From contig JAJYLG010000008.1 in assembly GCA_021787985.1 (NCBI GenBank), positions 2,821-66,820 on the forward strand: DNA of 64,000 nt, in the 5' to 3' direction. How positions within the stretch are numbered: position 1 is the first letter of the stretch; every line of letters begins with the position of its first letter. Position numbers and translations under genes: made by a program. Below the pieces are notes generated by a model. The model saw only the letters and a list, made by a program, of their open reading frames with translations, made no database searches and had not been told where the DNA came from. Shown piece by piece: positions 51,422 to 63,148 of this stretch. This DNA is from Chloroflexota bacterium. Its GTDB lineage: Bacteria; Chloroflexota; Dehalococcoidia; DSGV01.

Positions 51422-52261
51422 ATGTCGCGACCGGTCATCACGTTGCTTACCGACTTCGGGACGCGTGACGCCTACGTCGCGGCCATGCGCGGCGTCCTGC
51501 TGGCCCTGGCGCCGGAGTCGCTGCCGGTGGACATCACCCACCACGTCCCGCCGCAGGATGTGCTCGTCGGCTCGCTGGTCGCGGCGCAGGCGTGGCCGTA
51601 TTTCCCGCAGGGCTCCGTCCACGTAGCGGTGGTCGACCCGGGCGTCGGCACCGCGCGCGCTTCGCTGGCGGTCGAAGCCGGTGGCTCGTGGTTCGTCGGT
51701 CCAGACAACGGCCTGCTCTCGCCCGCCGTGCCGGTGGGCTCGCGGCCGCAGGGGGACCCGACCGTCGCGGCCGTCTGTCCGCTGCCCGAGGGTGTCCGCC
51801 TGTGGCGGATCGATCACGGGCGGCTGTCCCCCGGACGGCCGGTGAGCTCGACGTTCCAGGGACGTGATGTCTTCGCGCCCGCGGCGGCCCGACTGGCACG
51901 CGGCGAACCGGCGGACGCCTTCGCCGCGCCGGCCGACCGACTGTGGTGCTTCCCCGTGCCACAGGCGCGGCGCAGCGTGCGCGGCGTCCTCTCCGGGGTG
52001 GTCCTCTACATCGACCACTTCGGGAACGCGGTCACCAGCATCCGGGAGGAGCAGCTCGTCGCAGGGCTCACCGTCGAGGCGCTGGCGCGTGACCTGGGTG
52101 CGCCGGTGCGCACCTTCGGCGACCTGCACCCCGGGCAGCCGGGGGCGCTGGTCGGCAGCGCCGGCTTCCTCGAAGTGGTCATGCGGGACGGGAGCGCCGC
52201 CGCGGCCCTCGGCATCGGCCGCGGCGACGTGGTCGTCTGCCGGCCGCTGGAGCGGCGATGA
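51422..52261 (+). CDS. SAM hydrolase/halogenase (DUF62) family protein
   Basis: LLTDFG..D, VVDPGVGT.R, GPDNG, STFQGRDVF and YIDHFGN. Confidence 0.88.
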   Translation: MSRPVITLLTDFGTRDAYVAAMRGVLLALAPESLPVDITHHVPPQDVLVGSLVAAQAWPYFPQGSVHVAVVDPGVGTARASLAVEAGGSWFVGPDNGLLSPAVPVGSRPQGDPTVAAVCPLPEGVRLWRIDHGRLSPGRPVSSTFQGRDVFAPAAARLARGEPADAFAAPADRLWCFPVPQARRSVRGVLSGVVLYIDHFGNAVTSIREEQLVAGLTVEALARDLGAPVRTFGDLHPGQPGALVGSAGFLEVVMRDGSAAAALGIGRGDVVVCRPLERR

Positions 52262-55573: not shown

Positions 55574-56932
55574 TCAGAGCGCCGCGCGGACGGCGAGGAC
55601 CGCGTCGCGGGTCACCTCCACCACGCGGTCCACCTCGTCGGGCTCGATGATCAGCGGCGGGGCGAAGCAGATCGCCTCGTTGCGATGGCGCGTGATGACG
55701 CCGCGGGCGCGCATCTCCGCGACGACCCTGGCGCCCACGCCACCGGGCGGGTCGAAAGGCGCGCCGCTGGCCTTGTCACGGACCAGCCCGACGGCGGCCA
55801 GCAGGCCGAGCCCGCGCACGTCGCCGACGATGTCGATGTCGTCGAGCGACTTCAGCCCGTTGAGCAGCCGCTCGCCCATCCGGGCAGCGTTCTCGGCCAG
55901 GCGTTCTTCCTTGAGGATCTGGAGGTGGCGCAACGCCACCGCGCACGACACCGGGTGACCCGACGCCGTGAACGTGTGCATGAACTTGAGGCTCGGTGGC
56001 GCCGACACCATCGCCTCCAGAATGCGGTCGGAGACGAAGGTGGCGCCCAGCGGCGTATAGCCGGAGTTGATGCCCTTGGCCACGCTCATCAGGTCCGGCT
56101 CGATGCCCCAGCGGGTCAGGGCGAACCAGTCGCCCGTGCGCCCGAAGCCGGTGATCACCTCATCCGCGATCAAGAGGATGTCGTGGCGGTCGCACAGGTC
56201 GCGCAGCGCGCGCCAGTAGTCCGGCGGCGGCGGGATCACGCCGCCCGCGCCCTGCACCGGCTCCGCGATGACGGCCGCGATCGTGTCCGCGCCCTCACGC
56301 TCGATGATCGCTTCGATGGAGCGGACGGCGCGTGCGGTGCGATCGCCCCAACCGCGGTCGAGCTGAGCGCGATACTCCCAGGGCGCCTCGGCCTGGAAGA
56401 AACCCGGCATCACCGGACTGAAGTACTCGTGGTAGACCGGCATGCCGGTGGCGCTCATGGTCGCGAACGTGACGCCGTGGTAGGAATCGACCCGCGAGAT
56501 GAACTTGGTCTTGGTTGGCTTTCCGAGCAGCTTCCAGTAGAAGCGCGCGACCTTGAAAGCGCTCTCGTTCGCCTCGCCGCCTCCCGAGCTGAAGAAGACC
56601 GCGTTGAGCGAAGGGTAGGTCACCTCAGCGAGCGCCGCGGCGAGCCGGATCGACGGCTCATTCGCGTAGCCGGTGTAGCTGGACGTGAACGCGACCGCGC
56701 GCATCTGCTCGGCCGCCGCCTCGGCGAGCTCCCGTCGGCCGTGCCCGACGTTGACGTTCCAGAGCGAGGAGAGGCCATCGATGTAGCGGCGGCCTTCCGT
56801 GTCGTAGAGGTAGATCCCTTCGCCGCGCTCGAAGATCAGGGCGTTCCTCTGGGCCTCCCGATGCCAAAGTGGATGGATGAGGTGGGCCAGGTCGAGATCT
56901 TGGAGCTCCTGGTAGCGAGTCGAGGTCGTCAA
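55574..56932 (-). CDS. Class III PLP aminotransferase
   Basis: YIDGLSSLWNVNVGHG, AEPVQGAGG, ADEVITGFGRTG and AKG (PLP Lys). The start (TTG 56932) is uncertain. Confidence 0.9.
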   Translation of the reverse strand: MTTSTRYQELQDLDLAHLIHPLWHREAQRNALIFERGEGIYLYDTEGRRYIDGLSSLWNVNVGHGRRELAEAAAEQMRAVAFTSSYTGYANEPSIRLAAALAEVTYPSLNAVFFSSGGGEANESAFKVARFYWKLLGKPTKTKFISRVDSYHGVTFATMSATGMPVYHEYFSPVMPGFFQAEAPWEYRAQLDRGWGDRTARAVRSIEAIIEREGADTIAAVIAEPVQGAGGVIPPPPDYWRALRDLCDRHDILLIADEVITGFGRTGDWFALTRWGIEPDLMSVAKGINSGYTPLGATFVSDRILEAMVSAPPSLKFMHTFTASGHPVSCAVALRHLQILKEERLAENAARMGERLLNGLKSLDDIDIVGDVRGLGLLAAVGLVRDKASGAPFDPPGGVGARVVAEMRARGVITRHRNEAICFAPPLIIEPDEVDRVVEVTRDAVLAVRAAL

Positions 56933-57230
56933 TGCCTGCCCCCGGTGAGAGCGGGCGGCGAAACCGCCCGCCCGAGTTGGCTCCATTCTCCCACCCGGCC
57001 GGCCGTGGGCTCAAACCGCGGTGCGACAGGCCGCACGCGCAGCGTGCCGCAGCCCGGGGGGGCGGGTCCGGTATTGACCAGGTTCGCGCATGGGACGCCG
57101 ACGAATAGGCCACCCCTATCGAGGGCATCACAACTAGCGATTGGCTGCTGCGGGCGCACGAACGCTACGCTCGTTGTGGACGCCGGTTCTCGACGCCACT
57201 TGCCATGAGCGGCATCCCGGAGGCGACACC

Positions 57231-58301
57231 GTGAAAGCGGTCGTGTTTGACCAGCATGGCGGGCCTGAGGTCCTGCACCACAGCGAGGTTCCGGAGCCCG
57301 AGCTGACGCCCAATGAGGTGATCGTCAAGGTTCGGGCGGCAGCCTGCAACTTCAACGACATCTGGGCACGCCGCGGGCTTCCGGGCATGAAGGTGATCCT
57401 GCCGCACGTGTCGGGTTCGGATGTCGCTGGCGAAGTCGTAGCCGTCGGCTCGGAGGTCGGTCAGGGGGACCGGGCCACAGGCTTCAACAACCTGCCGATC
57501 AAGGTCGGCGATGAGGTCGTGGTGCACTGCGGGCTGTCCTGCCGGGTGTGTGAGGCGTGCACGCGTGGCGACGAGTTCTTTTGCAAACAGTTCAAGATCT
57601 GGGGCTTCCAGACCGGTCCGCTCGACGGCGGCCATGCCGAGTACATTCGCATCCCGGCGGCAAACCTGCTGCCCAAGCCGAAGAACCTCTCCTGGGAGGC
57701 TGCGGCCTCGATCCCACTGGTGCTGGTAACCGTGTGGCGCATGCTGGTCACCCGCGCCCGCATCCGGCCGAACGACTCGGTGCTCATCTGGGGCGCGGCG
57801 GGGGGCCTGGGCTCGATGGCGGTCCAGATCGCGCGACTGTTCAACGCCCATCCGATCGCCGTGATCGGCAGCAGTAAGAAGGAGGAGTTCGTCCGCTGCC
57901 TGGGCGCGGAGCACGTGATCGACCGCTCGCGCGAGAGCGTGCCCGAGGCGGTCAAGCGCATCACCGACCGGCGTGGCGTCGACATCGTGTTCGAGCACAC
58001 CGGCGCTGAGACCTGGCAGGATGGCGTACAGTCGCTGCGCTGGGGCGGCACCCTGGTCACCTGTGGCGCCACCACCGGCTTCATCGGCCAGACCGACATC
58101 CGCTTCTTGTGGAACAAGCAGATGAATCTCCTCGGCTCCCACCTCGGAAACAAGGGCGAGCTGATCGACGCGATGAAGTTCGTGGAGTCGGGACACATTC
58201 GGCCGGTCGTGCATCGCACGCTGCCGCTGAGGGATGCCGCCGAGGCCCAGCGGATCATGGAGAATGCGGAGGTGCAGGGCAAGCTCGTCCTCGTGCCCTG
58301 A
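57231..58301 (+). CDS. Zn-binding medium-chain dehydrogenase/enoyl-CoA reductase-like protein
   Basis: GroES domain, structural Zn motif C..C..C......C, CNFND in place of the catalytic-Zn CHSD, and [11 protein letters not shown] 57231 follows GGAGG. Confidence 0.85.
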
Positions 58302-58323
58302 CCGCTTGCCGCGAGGTGGCTCC

Positions 58324-60000
58324 ATGAACGACGGCCGTGAGCTGGAACGGATCGACCGGGCGCTGCACGCCTGGGAAGAGGGGACGCTGGGGAAAGCGCT
58401 GGGCCGCTCGCCCGAGCGACAGGAGCGGTTCGCGACGTCGAGCGTGGAGGCACGGCGGCTCTACACGCCCCTGGACACGGCGGAGGTCGACTACTCGCGC
58501 GACATCGGCTTTCCCGGTGAGTATCCCTACACGCGCGGCATCCAGCCGACGATGTATCGCGGCCGGCTGTGGACGATGCGCCAGTACGCCGGATACGGCA
58601 CGGCTGAGGAGTCGAACCAACGCTTCCGCTACCTGCTCTCGCAAGGACAGACTGGCCTCTCCGTGGCGTTCGACCTGCCGACACAGCTCGGCTACGACAG
58701 CGACGATCCGATCGCGGCGGATGAGGTCGGCCAGGTCGGTGTCGCCATCGACTCCCTGGCCGACATGGAGACGCTCTTCGCCGGCATCCCGCTGGACCGC
58801 GTCTCCACCTCGATGACGATCAACGCGCCGGCGCCGATCCTGGTGGCGATGTACGTGGCCGTCGGAAAGAAGCAGGGCGTCCGCCCGGACCAGCTCGACG
58901 GAACAGCCCAGAATGACGTGCTCAAGGAGTACGTGGCGCGCGGGACGTACATCTACCCGCCGCGAGCGTCGCTCCGCCTCGCCGGGGACCTGATCGCCTA
59001 CTGCGCGCGGGACGTGCCGAAGTTCAACAGCATCTCCATCTCTGGCTACCACATCCGCGACGCCGGCTCGACCGCCGTGCAAGAGATCGCCTTCACCTTC
59101 GCCAACGCGCTCGAGTACATCGTCGCCGCACAGCGCGCGGGCGCGGATGTGGACGGGTTCGCGCCGCGGATTTCGTGGATCTTCAACACGCATAACCACT
59201 TCTTCGAGGAGGTGGCCAAGTACCGGGCGCTGCGCCGACTGTGGGCCCGGATCATGCGTGAGCGCGTCGGTGCGAAAGACCCTCGCTCGTGGATGCTGCG
59301 CACGCACAGCCAGACCGGTGGCTCGACGCTGATGGCACAGCAGCCGGAGAACAACATCGTGCGCGCGGCGATCCAGGCGCTGGCGGCCGTGCTGGGCGGT
59401 GTGCAGTCGATCGCGCTGTCGTGCTACGACGAAGCGCTGGCGCTGCCCACCGAGGAGGCGCAGCGGATTGCCCTGCGCACGCAGCAGGTCATCGCGCACG
59501 AGTCCGGCGCCGCCGACGTGGTGGACCCGCTGGGCGGCTCGTGGTACGTGGAGCGGCTGACGTCCGAGCTGGAACAGGGCGCGGAGGCGCTGATGGCGGA
59601 GATCGAGTCGATGGGCGGCGCCGTCGCCGTCATCGAGTCCGGCTGGATGCAGCGGCAGATCCAGGACGCCGCCTATCGCTACCAGCAGGCGATCGAGGCC
59701 GGAGGCCAGGTGATCGTCGGCGTGAACCGGTACCGGGTGGAGTCGGAGGAGGCGAAGATCATCTTTCGCGTCGACCCACGGCTGCGCGACGCCCAGTTGG
59801 AGCGTCTGCGGCGGCTGCGGGGGGAGCGCGATGGGACGGCCGCGGGGGCCGCGCTGGCGCGGCTCGAGGAAGCCTGCCGGGACGAGGGCAATGTGATGCC
59901 CGCGATCCTCGAGGCGGTCGAGGCGTACGCCACGCTGGGCGAGATCAGCGGCGCGATGCGCCGGGTGTTCGGCGAGTACCGGGCACCAGTGGCCGTATGA
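58324..60000 (+). CDS. B12-dependent acyl-CoA mutase, substrate-binding (large) subunit
   Basis: [55 protein letters not shown] and DPLGGS. There is no DxH cobalamin-binding domain. Confidence 0.9.
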
Positions 60001-60058
60001 GCGAGGGGGACTGACGCCAGCCCGTGCGTAGGGCCGGCGTGGAGCAGGAGGTAGGTCG

Positions 60059-60808
60059 ATGGGACCGCTGACAGGCAAGGTCGCGGTGGTCACCGGTGCA
60101 TCTCGAGGGCTCGGTCGCTCGATCGCGTTCGAGCTGGCGAGCAGCGGTGCGCAGGTAGCCGTCAACTACAACACGAGCGCCGAGCCTGCCATGGAGGTCG
60201 CGCGCTGCATCAGCTCCGACGGGTCGCGCGCCGTCACGGTCCAGGCCGACGTGTCGCGCGAGGAGGACGTCCGCCGCATGGTGGACGAGGTGGTTCAGGA
60301 GTTCGGCGGGGTGGACATCCTGGTGAACAACGCGGGTATCAACCGCGACCGGACGCTGCGCAAGATGACTTCTGCTGAGTGGCACGAAGTCATGCGCACG
60401 AACCTGGACTCGGTCTTCTACTGCACGCAGGCGGTGGTCCCGCACATGAGCCAGCGCGGCGGGGGCGTCGTGGTCAACATGTCGAGCATCATCGGCCGGA
60501 TGGGCAATGTCGGGCAGGCGAACTACGCCGCCTCGAAGGCCGGCATGATCGGCTTCACCAAGGCGGCGGCGCGCGAGCTGGCGCGCGATAACATCCGCGT
60601 GGTGGCGGTGTGCCCCGGCTTCGTCGAGACGGACATGCTCGCCGGCGTGCCGGAGCAGGCCCGCGAGCGGCTGCTGACACAGGTGCCGCTGGGCCGGTTT
60701 GGGAAGCCGGGGGACGTGGCGCGGCTGGTCCGCTTCCTGTGCAGCGAGGCCGGTTGGATGACCGGCGCGATCCTCGACCTGAACGGCGGACACTACATCC
60801 CGAGCTGA
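60059..60808 (+). CDS. SDR oxidoreductase, PhaB/FabG-like (acetoacetyl-CoA reductase-like)
   Basis: TGASRGLG, NNAGINRD..LRKM, GQANYAASK and PGF.ETDM. Confidence 0.88.
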   Translation: MGPLTGKVAVVTGASRGLGRSIAFELASSGAQVAVNYNTSAEPAMEVARCISSDGSRAVTVQADVSREEDVRRMVDEVVQEFGGVDILVNNAGINRDRTLRKMTSAEWHEVMRTNLDSVFYCTQAVVPHMSQRGGGVVVNMSSIIGRMGNVGQANYAASKAGMIGFTKAAARELARDNIRVVAVCPGFVETDMLAGVPEQARERLLTQVPLGRFGKPGDVARLVRFLCSEAGWMTGAILDLNGGHYIPS

Positions 60809-60907
60809 CATCGGGGGGGAGGGGTGAGCGCGCGGGGGTACGCCTTCTCCAGCCGGCCCCCGCGCGCTACCTTTGCCGTGGGCCGATTGCCCCGATCGGA
60901 GGCGCAG

Positions 60908-61906
60908 ATGACCACCGTCGAACAGGCCGCCAGCTCGCCTGCGCGCTCGTTCCGGCGCGAGCTGCCCACCGTCCGCGCGGCCGTCATCCAGGCGGAGTCG
61001 CCATTCCTGGACATCGATGCCGGCGTGGAGAAGGCGTGTCGGCTGATCGAGGAGGCACGTCGAGGCGGGGCGCGCGTGATCGCCTTCCCGGAGACCTGGC
61101 TGCCTGGCTATCCGTTCTGGCTGTGGACCGAGCGCACGATCTCCTCCGGCCTCTTCCTCGACTTGTTCGAGAACGCCGTCGAGATCCCCGGCCGGGTGAC
61201 CGAGACGCTCGGCGAGGCAGCGCGGCGCGCCGGAGCGTGGACCGTCATCGGAGTGAACGAGCGAACGACACTGGTCCCGGGAACGCTCTACAATACCCAG
61301 CTCTTCCTCGCGCCGGACGGCTCGGTCGCGCTGGCGCGGCGCAAGGTGATGCCGACGCACGTGGAGCGCACCGTGTGGGGCTGGGGTGGCGCCGAGGGGT
61401 TGCGGGTGCTCGACACGCCCGCCGGCCGGCTCGGCGGGCTCATCTGCTGGGAGCACGAGATGCCACTGGTGCGCCAGGCGTTGCACGAGCAGGGCGAGCA
61501 GGTGCACGTCGCCGCCTGGCCGGCGATGCGCAGCCAGAACAAGCACATCGACTTCGGCTGTCGGCAGTACGCCTTCGAGGGCGCCTGCTTCGTCCTGGTT
61601 GCGGGCGGACTGTTCGACCCCGCTCGCTGGGAAGGACGGTTCGGGCAGCAGACCGGTCGCGCGGCGGCCAACGGCGGCTCGGCGATCATCGCGCCATCGG
61701 GCGAGTACCTGGCGGGGCCGGTCTACGATGCAGAGGTGGTGCTGTACGCGGACCTGGACCTGCGGATGTGCGCACAGCACAAGTACTGGGTGGACGTGGC
61801 CGGTCACTACCATCGCCCCGACCTGCTGCGGCTCGACTGGCCCGCGGGCCGGCCGTACGAGGGCGGGACGCGTCCGGAGGTGGAGGAGCCGGCGGACGAG
61901 GAGTGA
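60908..61906 (+). CDS. Nitrilase (carbon-nitrogen hydrolase)
   Basis: E-K-C triad in FPETW.PGYP, RRKVMPT..ER and LICWEH, plus DVAGHY.RPD. The start may be GTG 60824. Confidence 0.88.
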   Translation: MTTVEQAASSPARSFRRELPTVRAAVIQAESPFLDIDAGVEKACRLIEEARRGGARVIAFPETWLPGYPFWLWTERTISSGLFLDLFENAVEIPGRVTETLGEAARRAGAWTVIGVNERTTLVPGTLYNTQLFLAPDGSVALARRKVMPTHVERTVWGWGGAEGLRVLDTPAGRLGGLICWEHEMPLVRQALHEQGEQVHVAAWPAMRSQNKHIDFGCRQYAFEGACFVLVAGGLFDPARWEGRFGQQTGRAAANGGSAIIAPSGEYLAGPVYDAEVVLYADLDLRMCAQHKYWVDVAGHYHRPDLLRLDWPAGRPYEGGTRPEVEEPADEE

Positions 61907-61963
61907 GCCCGGCCTGCCGTGCGCGGAGGGGAGGCGCAGTCAGGCGACATAAGGAGGATACAC

Positions 61964-63148
61964 GTGAACGAAGCCGTCATCGTTAGCGCGGCGCGGACGC
62001 CGATCGGCACCTTCGGCGGTGTCTTCACCGACGTTCCGGCCACGACGCTGGGCGAGGTGGCCATCCGCGCGGCCCTGGAGCGCGCCGAGGTCGAGCCGTC
62101 AGCGGTCGACGAGGTGATCATGGGCAACGTCCTGCAGGCGGGCCTGGGGATGAACCCGGCACGGCAGGCGGCGCTGGCGGCAGGTATCCCCGACTCGGTC
62201 CCGGCGATGACGATCAACTTCGTCTGCGGCTCGGGTTTGCGCGCCGTCGCGCTGGCGGCGCAGGCGATCCGGCAGGGCGACGCTGAGATCGTGGTGGCCG
62301 GCGGTATGGAGAACATGAGCCGCGCGCCGTACCTGCTACAGAACGCGCGCTTCGGCTACCGAATGAACGACGGCACGCTCCACGACAGCATGACCACGGA
62401 TGGTTTGACCTGCGCCCTGGAGCACTGCCACATGGGCGTCACTGCCGAGAACGTGGCGGCCGACTGGGGCGTGAGCCGCGAGGACCAGGACGCCTTCGCC
62501 CTCGAAAGCCAGCGACGGGCCGCCGCGGCCTGGGAGGCGGGCCGCTTCGCCGACGAGGTCGTGCCGGTGACCGTGCCCGGCCGCAAAGGCAGTATGACCG
62601 TGGACCGTGACGAGCATCCGCGACCGCAGACGTCGCGAGAGGCGCTCGCCGGCCTGCGGTCCGCGTTCAAGCGGGACGGTACGGTGACGGCCGGGAACGC
62701 TTCGGGGATCAACGATGGCGCCGCTGCGACGGTAGTCATGTCGCGCGCGCGGGCCGTTGAACTGGGGCTGAAGCCGCTGGCTGTCATCCGGTCGTACGCC
62801 TGGGCGGGCGTGGCGCCCCGGGTGATGGGCATCGGTCCGGTGCCGGCGACGCGCAAGGCGCTGGCTCGCGCGGAGATCAGCGCCGAGGACCTGGACCTGG
62901 TCGAGGCGAACGAGGCCTTCGCCGCCCAGTCGGTGGTGGTCGCCCGTGAGCTCGGGCTGGACGCGGCCAAGCTGAACGTCAACGGCGGGGCGATCGCGCT
63001 GGGGCATCCGATCGGGGCTAGCGGCGCGCGCATTCTGACGACGTTGCTGTACGAGATGAAGCGCCGCAACGCGCACCTGGGGCTGGCGACGCTCTGCATC
63101 GGCGGCGGCATGGGCATCGCCATGGTCGTGCAGAACGGCGACCATTGA
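61964..63148 (+). CDS. Acetyl-CoA C-acetyltransferase (thiolase)
   Basis: [19 protein letters not shown] and LCIGGG. GTG start follows AAGGAGG. Confidence 0.93.

Follow-up and report, generated by a model that had tools for sequence, protein, structure and literature searches.

On balance, the five co-directional genes described here probably form a variant ethylmalonyl-CoA module working from acetyl-CoA, in which a gene set conserved in Dehalococcoidia carries a lineage-specific nitrilase insert. No report of an ethylmalonyl-CoA pathway in Dehalococcoidia was found in the searchable literature. A sequence-only reading had proposed the catabolism of a branched or unsaturated nitrile and had named an ethylmalonyl-CoA-like assimilation variant as its alternative. 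The alternative is the part that stood, being favoured by synteny and by co-occurrence with Ccr, the CO2-fixing crotonyl-CoA carboxylase/reductase. A nitrile-degrading pathway is not supported because the nitrilase is found at the cluster in this genome only, and the four other genes are a conserved set. The features of the locus, within a window of 64,000 nucleotides (the whole stretch of DNA that was analysed), are as follows.

55574-56986, - strand: class-III aminotransferase, flanking, strand opposite to the cluster
56987-57230, no strand: intergenic region between the divergent aminotransferase (-) and MDR genes, presumed from position only to hold the operon promoter
57231-58301, + strand: compact MDR, 356 aa; Pfam ADH_N and ADH_zinc_N
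58324-60000, + strand: acyl-CoA mutase large subunit, 558 aa; MM_CoA_mutase PF01642 only, 731 bits
60059-60808, + strand: SDR, FabG/PhaB-like; adh_short, 220 bits
60908-61906, + strand: branch-1 nitrilase, 332 aa; CN_hydrolase, 166 bits
61964-63148, + strand: thiolase of the acetyl-CoA C-acetyltransferase type; Thiolase_N and Thiolase_C; TIGR01930, 510 (cut-off 240)
From 63177, - strand: murE, flanking, strand opposite to the cluster

The five genes span 57231-63148 on the + strand in the order MDR, mutase, SDR, nitrilase, thiolase. Successive genes are separated by 22, 58, 99 and 57 bp, in agreement with the 22-100 bp given earlier, and the earlier identifications of a nitrilase, a B12 mutase, an MDR, a PhaB-like reductase and a thiolase were right. 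The thiolase starts at GTG 61964 with AAGGAGG 6 nt upstream and the nitrilase at ATG 60908, preceded at 5 nt by GGAGG; for the nitrilase, GTG 60824 was rejected as a start because its Shine-Dalgarno sequence is too close. Scanning showed no intrinsic-terminator-like site within the cluster and no consensus sigma-70-like site in 56987-57230. The five genes look like a single operon. The metatranscriptomes of the same mine-drainage study contain no sequence from the locus. As had been stated, the CoA ligase, the B12-binding subunit and MeaB lie outside the window: its six frames are free of AMP-ligase PROSITE signatures, the mutase has no B12-binding domain, all nine B12-binding matches of the genome are on other contigs and the MeaB genes are on contigs C31 and C53.

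The mutase shares its fold and the residues Tyr89, Gln197, Arg207, Tyr243, His244, His328 and Gln330 (P. shermanii numbering) with MCM (P. shermanii 1REQ, human 2XIJ and the split archaeal/Chloroflexota type). The first five of these make up the dicarboxylyl-CoA (methylmalonyl/ethylmalonyl) pocket, Tyr89 and Arg207 being the carboxylate-anchoring residues of methylmalonyl- and ethylmalonyl-CoA mutases. Positions 89/207 are Phe/Gln in isobutyryl-CoA mutase and Ile/Gln in 2-hydroxyisobutyryl-CoA mutase, which also has Asp117; assignment to either type was rejected as the mutase has neither Phe or Ile nor Gln at these positions. The top-scoring PDB chain is nonetheless the 2-hydroxyisobutyryl-CoA mutase HcmA (4R3U, 577 bits), of the same split architecture and length. 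However, Tyr89 and Arg207 are replaced in HcmA by Ile and Gln, and its SVAFD motif contributes an Asp, whereas the mutase here agrees with MCM at each of these three positions. By identity, the mutase belongs with the split MCM/ICM/HCM set (62% to the canonical MCM-type subunit of the genome, 55% to its ICM-type subunit and 42% to MeaA).

The mutase differs from MCM in falling below the MCM equivalog cut-off (NF006944, 645 against 876) and in its motifs. It carries a different 11-residue segment and ISWIFNTHN where others have QSLHTNSxDEA and LSFFF, and these changes are common to 118 other homologues within the best 120 matches. The signature of this 'ALS-motif' subfamily is QS[ILM]ALSC in place of QSLHTNS, with QSIALSC in the mutase itself and ISWI for LSFF. 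MeaA, with a fused B12 domain and 661 aa, has RTYAGH and keeps SFF, whereas the mutase here has RQYAGY and SWI; in both, the His-Thr-Asn of QSLHTN is replaced, by Gln-Leu-Pro in MeaA and by Ala-Leu-Ser here. Like Ecm/MeaA, the mutase keeps the Tyr89 and Arg207 equivalents and is linked genomically to Ccr. It is proposed to be the catalytic subunit of an ethylmalonyl-CoA mutase.

Synteny was examined in 44 loci around mutase orthologues of 65-75% identity. An SDR orthologue (49-60% identity) lies directly 3' of the mutase in 21 loci and a thiolase orthologue (62-70% identity) is present in 11, in 10 after the mutase-SDR pair and in one (L104) directly after the mutase. A MaoC hydratase and an ACAD are directly 5' of the mutase in 8/44 loci, a CitE/HpcH lyase is found in 9/44, and the mutase is adjoined by Ccr in 4/44 and by the compact MDR in 2/44. 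The recurring core in Dehalococcoidia is ACAD, MaoC hydratase, mutase, SDR and thiolase, often with the lyase and a bona fide Ccr. One locus (L152) reads compact MDR, HpcH, ACAD, MaoC, mutase, SDR, thiolase, and in another (L147) a bona fide Ccr adjoins the mutase, an MDR of 415 aa with 573 bits for TIGR01751 (cut-off 378.55). In half of the 44 loci no pathway gene is beside the mutase, and many orthologues are solitary, near central-metabolism genes. The ACAD of these clusters is ordinary (386-413 aa), its best model being of butyryl/acryloyl type and not a recognised methylsuccinyl-CoA dehydrogenase, and the lyase is scored higher by the CitE and RipC models than by the malyl-CoA lyase model. 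The SDR exceeds the cut-off of the FabG subfamily NF009466 (267 against 222) and is under the respective cut-off of every acetoacetyl-CoA reductase model; acetoacetyl-CoA reductase is its proposed function.

The ethylmalonyl-CoA gene sets of Alphaproteobacteria and Streptomyces contain ccr with meaA/ecm, phaA, phaB, croR, mcd, mch and mcl; in Ruegeria sp. TM1040, for example, ccrA and meaA are 1.7 kb apart. As in those sets, thiolase, 3-ketoacyl-CoA reductase, MaoC-type hydratase, Ccr-type MDR, B12 mutase, ACAD and CitE/HpcH lyase are found in one neighbourhood. Unlike in those sets, a split large subunit lacking the B12 domain, 42% identical to MeaA and with other motifs, serves as the mutase, a 356-aa MDR stands in for Ccr in this genome, the ACAD is of ordinary length and the hydratase genes encode a single MaoC.

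Ccr scored above its cut-off in 36/41 genomes with an ALS-motif mutase versus 2/40 without one (Fisher p = 3.6e-15, for related genomes whose counts are not phylogenetically independent). The compact MDR (at least 52% identity) is present in four of the five mutase genomes that lack Ccr (G000, G181, G125 and G277, the source genome included) and in none of the 36 that have it. The best NCBIfam model for the MDR is that of Ccr itself (TIGR01751, 270 bits), under the cut-off of 378.55. Like Ccr (K. setae ECR 6NA3/6OWE), the MDR has HxxGSD, the NADPH-type MDR fold and three of the four CO2-pocket residues (N81, F170 and H365); unlike Ccr, it has 356 rather than ~415-450 aa and Gln at E171. The three retained residues, the Gln and a Cys4 lobe occur together in 55/57 family members. 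Such a structural-zinc lobe is also found in the T. thermophilus MDR 2EIH and in Zn-ADHs. Of the solved structures 2EIH comes closest, with 276 bits against ~200 bits for Ccr/ECR chains, and it lacks all four CO2-pocket residues. Elsewhere, relatives of the compact MDR have an HpcH lyase as their neighbour (L065, L182) or a fused, MeaA-like mutase (L097). The MDR is proposed to be a Ccr look-alike, a crotonyl-CoA (or acryloyl-CoA) reductase that is possibly carboxylating; it may be restricted to reduction, or be active on acryloyl-CoA.

This last activity would suit a different reading, in which the mutase serves as an additional isozyme of methylmalonyl-CoA mutase and the MDR as an acryloyl-CoA reductase or a direct acryloyl-CoA carboxylase/reductase; propionyl-/acryloyl-CoA would be converted to succinyl-CoA, and the thiolase and SDR would act on odd- or short-chain acyl-CoAs. 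The mutase could be such an isozyme because the MCM substrate-contact residues checked are all kept. The 62% identity to the canonical subunit and the many solitary orthologues point the same way, as do weak matches of the MDR to the models for AcuI/YhdH and for archaeal acryloyl-CoA reductase; acryloyl-CoA is also a substrate of Ccr enzymes. However, a complete canonical MCM operon already exists in every genome tested. In the source genome it lies on contig C31, with a large subunit (QSLHTNS), two DinB genes, two epimerases, a B12 small subunit and MeaB, and in 8/8 other genomes it combines a large subunit with a B12 small subunit and one or two epimerases, MeaB being included in 7/8. Unlike MCM, the ALS-motif mutases have neither a small subunit nor MeaB nor an epimerase encoded within 8 kb in any of the 44 loci. 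Given also that QSLHTNS and SFF, which are conserved elsewhere, are changed invariantly across the subfamily, that the mutase co-occurs tightly with Ccr and that thiolase, SDR and MaoC neighbours suit C4 chemistry, a second isozyme is unlikely.

In the favoured ethylmalonyl-CoA route, the thiolase would form acetoacetyl-CoA from two acetyl-CoA, the SDR would reduce this to 3-hydroxybutyryl-CoA and a MaoC hydratase encoded elsewhere in the genome would give crotonyl-CoA. The compact MDR, replacing Ccr, would act on crotonyl-CoA and, given a functional Ccr-like pocket, would carboxylate it reductively to ethylmalonyl-CoA. The ALS-motif large subunit would then produce methylsuccinyl-CoA, with the B12-binding small subunit, MeaB and epimerase on loan from the canonical operon on C31. 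The mesaconyl-/methylmalyl-CoA end may be handled by a cluster on contig C173, MaoC-ACAD-MaoC with a succinyl-CoA:mesaconate CoA-transferase-like gene and a CitE/RipC-like lyase. What the sequences show directly is the identity of the genes, the active-site residues, the synteny and the phylogenetic co-occurrence; we infer all functions and substrates, the direction of flux, the sharing of the small subunit and co-transcription. The same genes could be run catabolically: a C5 dicarboxylate (methylsuccinate, mesaconate, itaconate or ethylmalonate) would be activated, and the mutase would give ethylmalonyl-CoA, decarboxylated to butyryl-CoA and taken to acetyl-CoA by ACAD, MaoC, SDR and thiolase. 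Around the mutase, these four do make up a full turn of (R)-type beta-oxidation, and the transferase-like gene and lyase on C173 are adjoined by a chemoreceptor gene. Nevertheless, the strong link of the mutase to Ccr and to its compact substitute favours the carboxylating, assimilatory direction, and a catabolic role appears quite unlikely.

The nitrilase would feed the operon if a branched or unsaturated nitrile were converted to an acid and a CoA ester, rearranged by the mutase and degraded to acetyl-CoA. Its position inside a tight co-directional cluster with no internal terminator and its own Shine-Dalgarno sequence are in keeping with this, as is the presence of the catalytic motifs described below. 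We nevertheless judge the nitrile route very improbable. The Tyr89/Arg207 pocket requires a free carboxylate, the window lacks a CoA ligase signature and a nitrilase gene is present in 0/44 loci surrounding orthologous mutases. The closest nitrilase homologues (55-58% identity) have no mutase nearby and adjoin an HhH-GPD glycosylase gene and the housekeeping genes ksgA/ispE, so the nitrilase is not syntenic with the mutase elsewhere, an outcome that the sequence-only reading had itself named as refuting the nitrile proposal. A paralogue on contig C26, 2.4 kb from the ICM-type mutase of the genome, would speak for the route, but an opposite-strand TPR gene divides the pair and hopanoid genes flank it. 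Among distant nitrilase-paralogue loci, 3/12 have a thiolase within 7 kb, which also favours the route and is above our chance expectation.

Between the SDR and thiolase genes the interval is variable: in five loci it measures 57-416 bp, and in five others it contains small genes of various kinds. In 8/44 loci the HhH-GPD gene, a neighbour of nitrilase orthologues elsewhere, occurs within 8 kb of the mutase and, where its position was checked, lies between the SDR and thiolase genes or just past them. From this comparison, the nitrilase is taken to be a lineage-specific insert, in this genome only, in the variable SDR-thiolase slot and outside the route. It is not compositionally foreign, since its GC3 matches that of the mutase, SDR and thiolase (0.89-0.91 for the genes scored). 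Its score with the Nit6803 model is 237, below the cut-off of 502.6. Its best PDB chain is Nit6803 of Synechocystis (3WUY, 213 bits), likewise a branch-1 nitrilase, with which it aligns at the catalytic motifs of Glu (FPETW), Lys (RRKVMPT) and Cys (ICWEH), and it is a genuine and probably active enzyme.

The DNA comes from a mine-drainage metagenome, and the source genome is a metagenome-assembled one of 3.5 Mb in 189 contigs, the window lying within contig C152. The nearest protein homologues are named as Dehalococcoidia or Chloroflexota. Because the G+C content is ~70%, spurious open reading frames are plentiful, and the real genes were picked by their domain content and a GC3 of ~0.9. The genes of the cluster and its upstream neighbour are as follows.

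55574-56986, - strand: class-III (omega-type) aminotransferase, upstream of and divergent from the operon, scoring below every equivalog cut-off
57231-58301, + strand: MDR reductase of 356 aa (open reading frame and domain content)
58324-60000, + strand: large subunit of an acyl-CoA mutase, lacking a B12 domain (PF01642)
60059-60808, + strand: SDR (open reading frame and domain content)
60908-61906, + strand: nitrilase (PF00795; ATG at 60908 with a good Shine-Dalgarno site)
61964-63148, + strand: thiolase (GTG at 61964 with a good Shine-Dalgarno site)

As the Shine-Dalgarno sites fix the starts of the nitrilase and the thiolase, the gaps between the five genes are 22, 58, 99 and 57 bp, in agreement with the sequence-only reading of five co-directional genes spaced by 22-100 bp. 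A promoter and terminator scan found no terminator-like sites within the cluster and one weak, uninformative promoter-like site inside the nitrilase gene. The locus was present only in DNA runs; all that matched in three metatranscriptomes of the mine-drainage study were conserved fragments of 20-40 bases from other organisms. The downstream flank is murE on the opposite strand. The upstream genes (CofD-like, SecG, solute-binding protein, SAM hydroxide adenosyltransferase, Fmt, radical-SAM protein, L25) were rejected as pathway partners, all being unrelated housekeeping genes. The SAM hydroxide adenosyltransferase (SAM_HAT_N plus SAM_HAT_C, 51422-52261, between the solute-binding protein gene and fmt) belongs to a family akin to fluorinases and chlorinases.

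The cluster had been proposed to hydrolyse a branched or unsaturated nitrile to an acid whose CoA ester would be rearranged by the mutase and cleaved to acetyl-CoA. The mutase belongs to the superfamily as a dicarboxylyl-CoA type (PF01642, 731 bits), with Tyr89, Gln197, Arg207 and Tyr243-His244 on alignment to 1REQ, and His328 and Gln330 are also retained. At the positions that reportedly govern specificity it reads RQYAGY (Tyr), KEYVARG (Arg) and SVAFD (Ala), whereas HcmA, the 2-hydroxyisobutyryl-CoA mutase (HCM) structure, reads RQIAGF, KEYMAQK and STDFD in the same alignment. Tyr therefore replaces the Ile of HcmA, Arg its Gln and Ala its hydroxyl-binding Asp, while relative to isobutyryl-CoA mutase (ICM) Tyr replaces Phe and Arg replaces Gln. 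What we take to be the ICM/HCM signature, namely Phe (ICM) or Ile (HCM) for Tyr89, Gln for Arg207 and, in HCM, also Asp117, is absent from the window's mutase. HcmA is the top-scoring solved structure (577 bits; human methylmalonyl-CoA mutase, MCM, 486) because the two share a split architecture, and identification as HCM was rejected since its specificity residues match those of MCM. Judged from these residues, the pocket should anchor a free carboxylate such as that of methylmalonyl- or ethylmalonyl-CoA, and is predicted to be unsuited to isobutyryl- or 2-hydroxyisobutyryl-CoA.

Such a pocket would also fit a second MCM isozyme, with an acryloyl-CoA reductase as its partner, an explanation that we consider improbable. 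The protein falls below the MCM equivalog cut-off (NF006944, 644.9 against 876), and the MCM motifs QSLHTNSxDEA and LSFF are replaced, the window's mutase having a different 11-residue motif at the first and ISWIF at the second. The form QS[ILM]ALSC[FY]DEA was found in 120/120 of the closest homologues at the site where MCM, ICM and HCM have QSLHTNSxDEA, and ISWIFNTHN in 102/120, as against LSFF in others, the search pattern having missed the anchor in 18. Neither does this ALS-motif mutase fall in the MeaA/Ecm clade of ethylmalonyl-CoA mutases, presumably marked by a fused B12 domain, RTYAGH and a QLP motif; it lacks the B12 domain, its motifs differ and its identity to Ruegeria MeaA is 42%. 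Ruegeria MeaA, a true ethylmalonyl-CoA mutase encoded 1.7 kb from ccrA, resembles the ALS-motif mutase in lacking His-Thr-Asn at the motif (RAVQLPAWNEA) but is otherwise dissimilar. An ethylmalonyl-CoA mutase role for the window's protein would be a functional analogy, drawn only from linkage to crotonyl-CoA carboxylase/reductase (Ccr).

That linkage was examined in 44 loci around orthologues of the mutase with 65-75% identity, 40 from species-representative genomes of the class and 4 from a contig scan and look-ups in metagenome and NCBI assemblies. Immediately 3' of the mutase, 21/44 loci carry an orthologue of the SDR (49-60% identity); 11 loci contain one of the thiolase (62-70%) and nine a CitE/HpcH-type lyase, and in eight the mutase is immediately preceded by genes for a MaoC hydratase and an acyl-CoA dehydrogenase. 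An MDR of 415 aa, which is a bona fide Ccr (TIGR01751, 573 bits against a cut-off of 378.55), adjoins in 4/44 loci, and the 356-aa reductase of the window, here called the compact MDR, does so in two. One complete-looking locus (L152) holds compact MDR, HpcH lyase, acyl-CoA dehydrogenase, MaoC, mutase, SDR and thiolase. The association extends to whole genomes. Forty-one carriers of the mutase subfamily, namely this genome together with 40 relatives, were compared with 40 genomes holding only the canonical type, and a Ccr above the NCBIfam cut-off was found in 36/41 carriers against 2/40 non-carriers (Fisher p = 3.6e-15, which is not a true probability as the genomes are related). In five of the conserved clusters (L147 13885-14838, L152 13095-14015, L173 16008-16952, L144 and L154) a gene of ~310 aa without a Pfam match lies directly 3' of the thiolase, and a 35%-identical homologue is found on contig C25 of this genome.

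Synteny and co-occurrence with Ccr make an ethylmalonyl-CoA-like assimilation variant, which the sequence-only reading had listed as its alternative, the best-supported explanation. The operon is thus probably, though by no means certainly, a variant ethylmalonyl-CoA-type module carrying a lineage-specific nitrilase insert, in which the thiolase, an acetoacetyl-CoA reductase, a Ccr substitute and an ethylmalonyl-CoA-type mutase would be the working parts; all of the substrates are ones that we infer. The thiolase is a member of the thiolase II family (TIGR01930, 509.6 bits against 240.55). The SDR falls short of the PhaB equivalogs (NF042966, 200 against 436; TIGR01829, 270 against 302; NF009546, 285 against 418) and passes only the FabG subfamily NF009466, so its putative acetoacetyl-CoA reductase role comes from context. 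Catabolic use of these same enzymes for C5 dicarboxylates is considered improbable, slightly more so than the second MCM isozyme.

The nitrilase has the Glu-Lys-Cys triad of branch 1 (FPETW, RRKVMPT and ICWEH, aligned to Nit6803, 3WUY; PF00795, 166 bits) and scores below the cut-off of the Nit6803-family equivalog. Its closest homologues, 55-58% identical and from Dehalococcoidia MAGs, have a G5/3D-domain gene on one side and an HhH-GPD glycosylase gene on the other, with ksgA and ispE close by and no mutase, SDR or thiolase in the neighbourhood. No nitrilase was found in any of the 44 loci around the mutase orthologues, so the synteny expected from a nitrile pathway is missing. The interval between SDR and thiolase, where the nitrilase sits in the window, is 57-416 bp in five loci; in five more it is occupied by assorted small genes, DinB and HhH-GPD among them. 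The HhH-GPD gene of this interval is the orthologue of the one flanking nitrilases elsewhere, and it lies <8 kb from the mutase in 8/44 loci. Most simply, the nitrilase would occupy a variable slot of a drifting neighbourhood and stand outside the pathway. At 12 more distant nitrilase loci of class-level relatives the five-gene operon was not found (0/12); three of these (L033, L035 and L036, in genomes G012, G015 and G021) have a thiolase 45-52% identical to that of the window within 7 kb, in differing arrangements, where ~0.3 would be expected by chance.

A second nitrilase of 41% identity lies 2.4 kb from an ICM-type mutase on contig C26. This pair was rejected as independent support for the nitrile route since it is not an operon: between the two lie a TPR gene on the opposite strand and an ORF without annotation, and the flanks are hopanoid genes (squalene-hopene cyclase, squalene synthase and an HpnE-like oxidase). 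With pocket residues of the wrong type and no synteny for the nitrilase, the nitrile route, which the co-directional nitrilase gene had suggested and which would have been new, now appears very unlikely.

The compact MDR falls below the Ccr equivalog cut-off (TIGR01751, 270.5 bits against 378.55, compared with 573 for the Ccr of L147). Among solved structures it comes nearest to the uncharacterised T. thermophilus 2EIH (276 bits), ahead of the Ccr/ECR structures at ~200 bits. The CO2 pocket of Ccr reportedly comprises N81, F170, E171 and H365 (K. setae numbering). The compact MDR keeps the equivalents of N81, F170 and H365, has Gln for E171 and bears a Cys4 structural-zinc lobe, whereas 2EIH does not retain N81, F170 and H365. 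This N/F/Q/H pocket with the Cys4 pattern occurs in 55/57 family members from three phyla. The carriers lacking Ccr are this genome, G181, G125, G277 and G032, and the first four are exactly those with a compact-MDR homologue (at least 52% identity), which is found in 0/36 of the Ccr-bearing genomes. The compact MDR adjoins an HpcH lyase in G096 and G181, and outside the phylum its neighbour is an HpcH lyase in Binataceae (L065) and a fused MeaA-like mutase at L097. Found, among the carriers, only in those without Ccr and adjoining such genes, the compact MDR therefore appears, on comparative evidence, to behave as a Ccr substitute. In many Binataceae (L065 8548-14062) it is flanked by a divergent HpcH/malyl-CoA-lyase-like gene on one side and, on the other, by a gene fusing FAD-linked oxidase, Fe-S and CCG domains (956 aa, GlcD-GlcF-like).

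A B12-binding domain or subunit and MeaB are absent from the mutase protein, from the window, as had been noted, and from all 44 orthologous loci, and no small subunit, MeaB or epimerase occurs within 8 kb of the ALS-motif mutase in these loci. Candidates for both were located on contig C31, in an operon of an MCM-type large subunit, two DinB-like genes, two epimerases, a B12 small subunit and MeaB. The canonical MCM operon was present in 8/8 other genomes with a large subunit, one or two epimerases and a small subunit, and with MeaB in 7/8. We infer that the orphan ALS-motif large subunit borrows the B12 subunit, MeaB and epimerase of the canonical operon. Tandem glyoxalase-family epimerase paralogues are found in the canonical operon of this genome and of 6/8 others (L043 630-6183; L184-L191), and on C31 the two DinB-family genes separate the large subunit from the epimerases.

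The full set of pathway families was sought in the genome as thiolase, reductase, hydratase, Ccr, epimerase, mutase, Mcd, Mch and Mcl. No canonical Ccr was found in this genome. Contig C173 (L176 7573-13983) holds MaoC, an acyl-CoA dehydrogenase, a second MaoC, a succinyl-CoA:mesaconate CoA-transferase-like gene (471 bits, under its cut-off) and a CitE/RipC-like lyase, directly followed by a methyl-accepting chemotaxis protein gene, and an HpcH-MaoC pair lies on C145. The window with C31, C173 and C145 thus supplies candidates for every family, Ccr, Mcd and Mcl being represented by non-equivalog look-alikes only.

It is tentatively suggested, as a possibility that we hold at rather less than even, that the ALS-motif mutases and the compact MDR are two linked, undescribed Chloroflexota enzymes of the ethylmalonyl-CoA pathway. 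The split mutase would then be an ethylmalonyl-CoA mutase that evolved independently, from the MCM/ICM/HCM side and not the MeaA clade, and, having no small subunit of its own, would share the B12 subunit, MeaB and epimerase of the canonical operon. The 356-aa MDR, whose pocket reads N/F/Q/H, would represent a minimal enoyl-CoA carboxylase/reductase of natural origin that takes the place of Ccr in this genome and in G181, G125 and G277, and perhaps also in Binataceae and Planctomycetota. The locus as a whole predicts ethylmalonyl-CoA-type acetyl-CoA assimilation in aerobic, heterotrophic Dehalococcoidia, for which no description of the pathway was found in the searchable open literature; cultured Dehalococcoidia (Tepidiforma) are reported to incorporate acetate yet to have no complete glyoxylate cycle (PMC10284905). 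It also predicts a large, tightly conserved acyl-CoA mutase subfamily, publicly annotated as 'methylmalonyl-CoA mutase', with the genomic behaviour of an ethylmalonyl-CoA mutase, and a small zinc-lobe MDR naturally bearing most of the CO2 pocket of Ccr, which would be of interest for engineering reductive carboxylases in synthetic CO2 fixation.

For a genome of 3.5 Mb, this one encodes unusually many mutases. The ICM-type paralogue (Phe/Gln) on C26 has no adjoining B12 subunit (L029 7834-13074). Four more, very divergent paralogues with the MM_CoA_mutase domain are found on C13, C25/C86, C10 and C53 (L012-L016), and these lack Tyr89, Arg207 and His244 (for example, LYDLRE or TYYISD instead of GYH). 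Those on C13, C10 and C53 each have their own adjoining B12-binding subunit, while that on C25 extends to the edge of its contig; the rest of it probably lies on C86, at whose start a mutase C-terminus and a B12 subunit are encoded.
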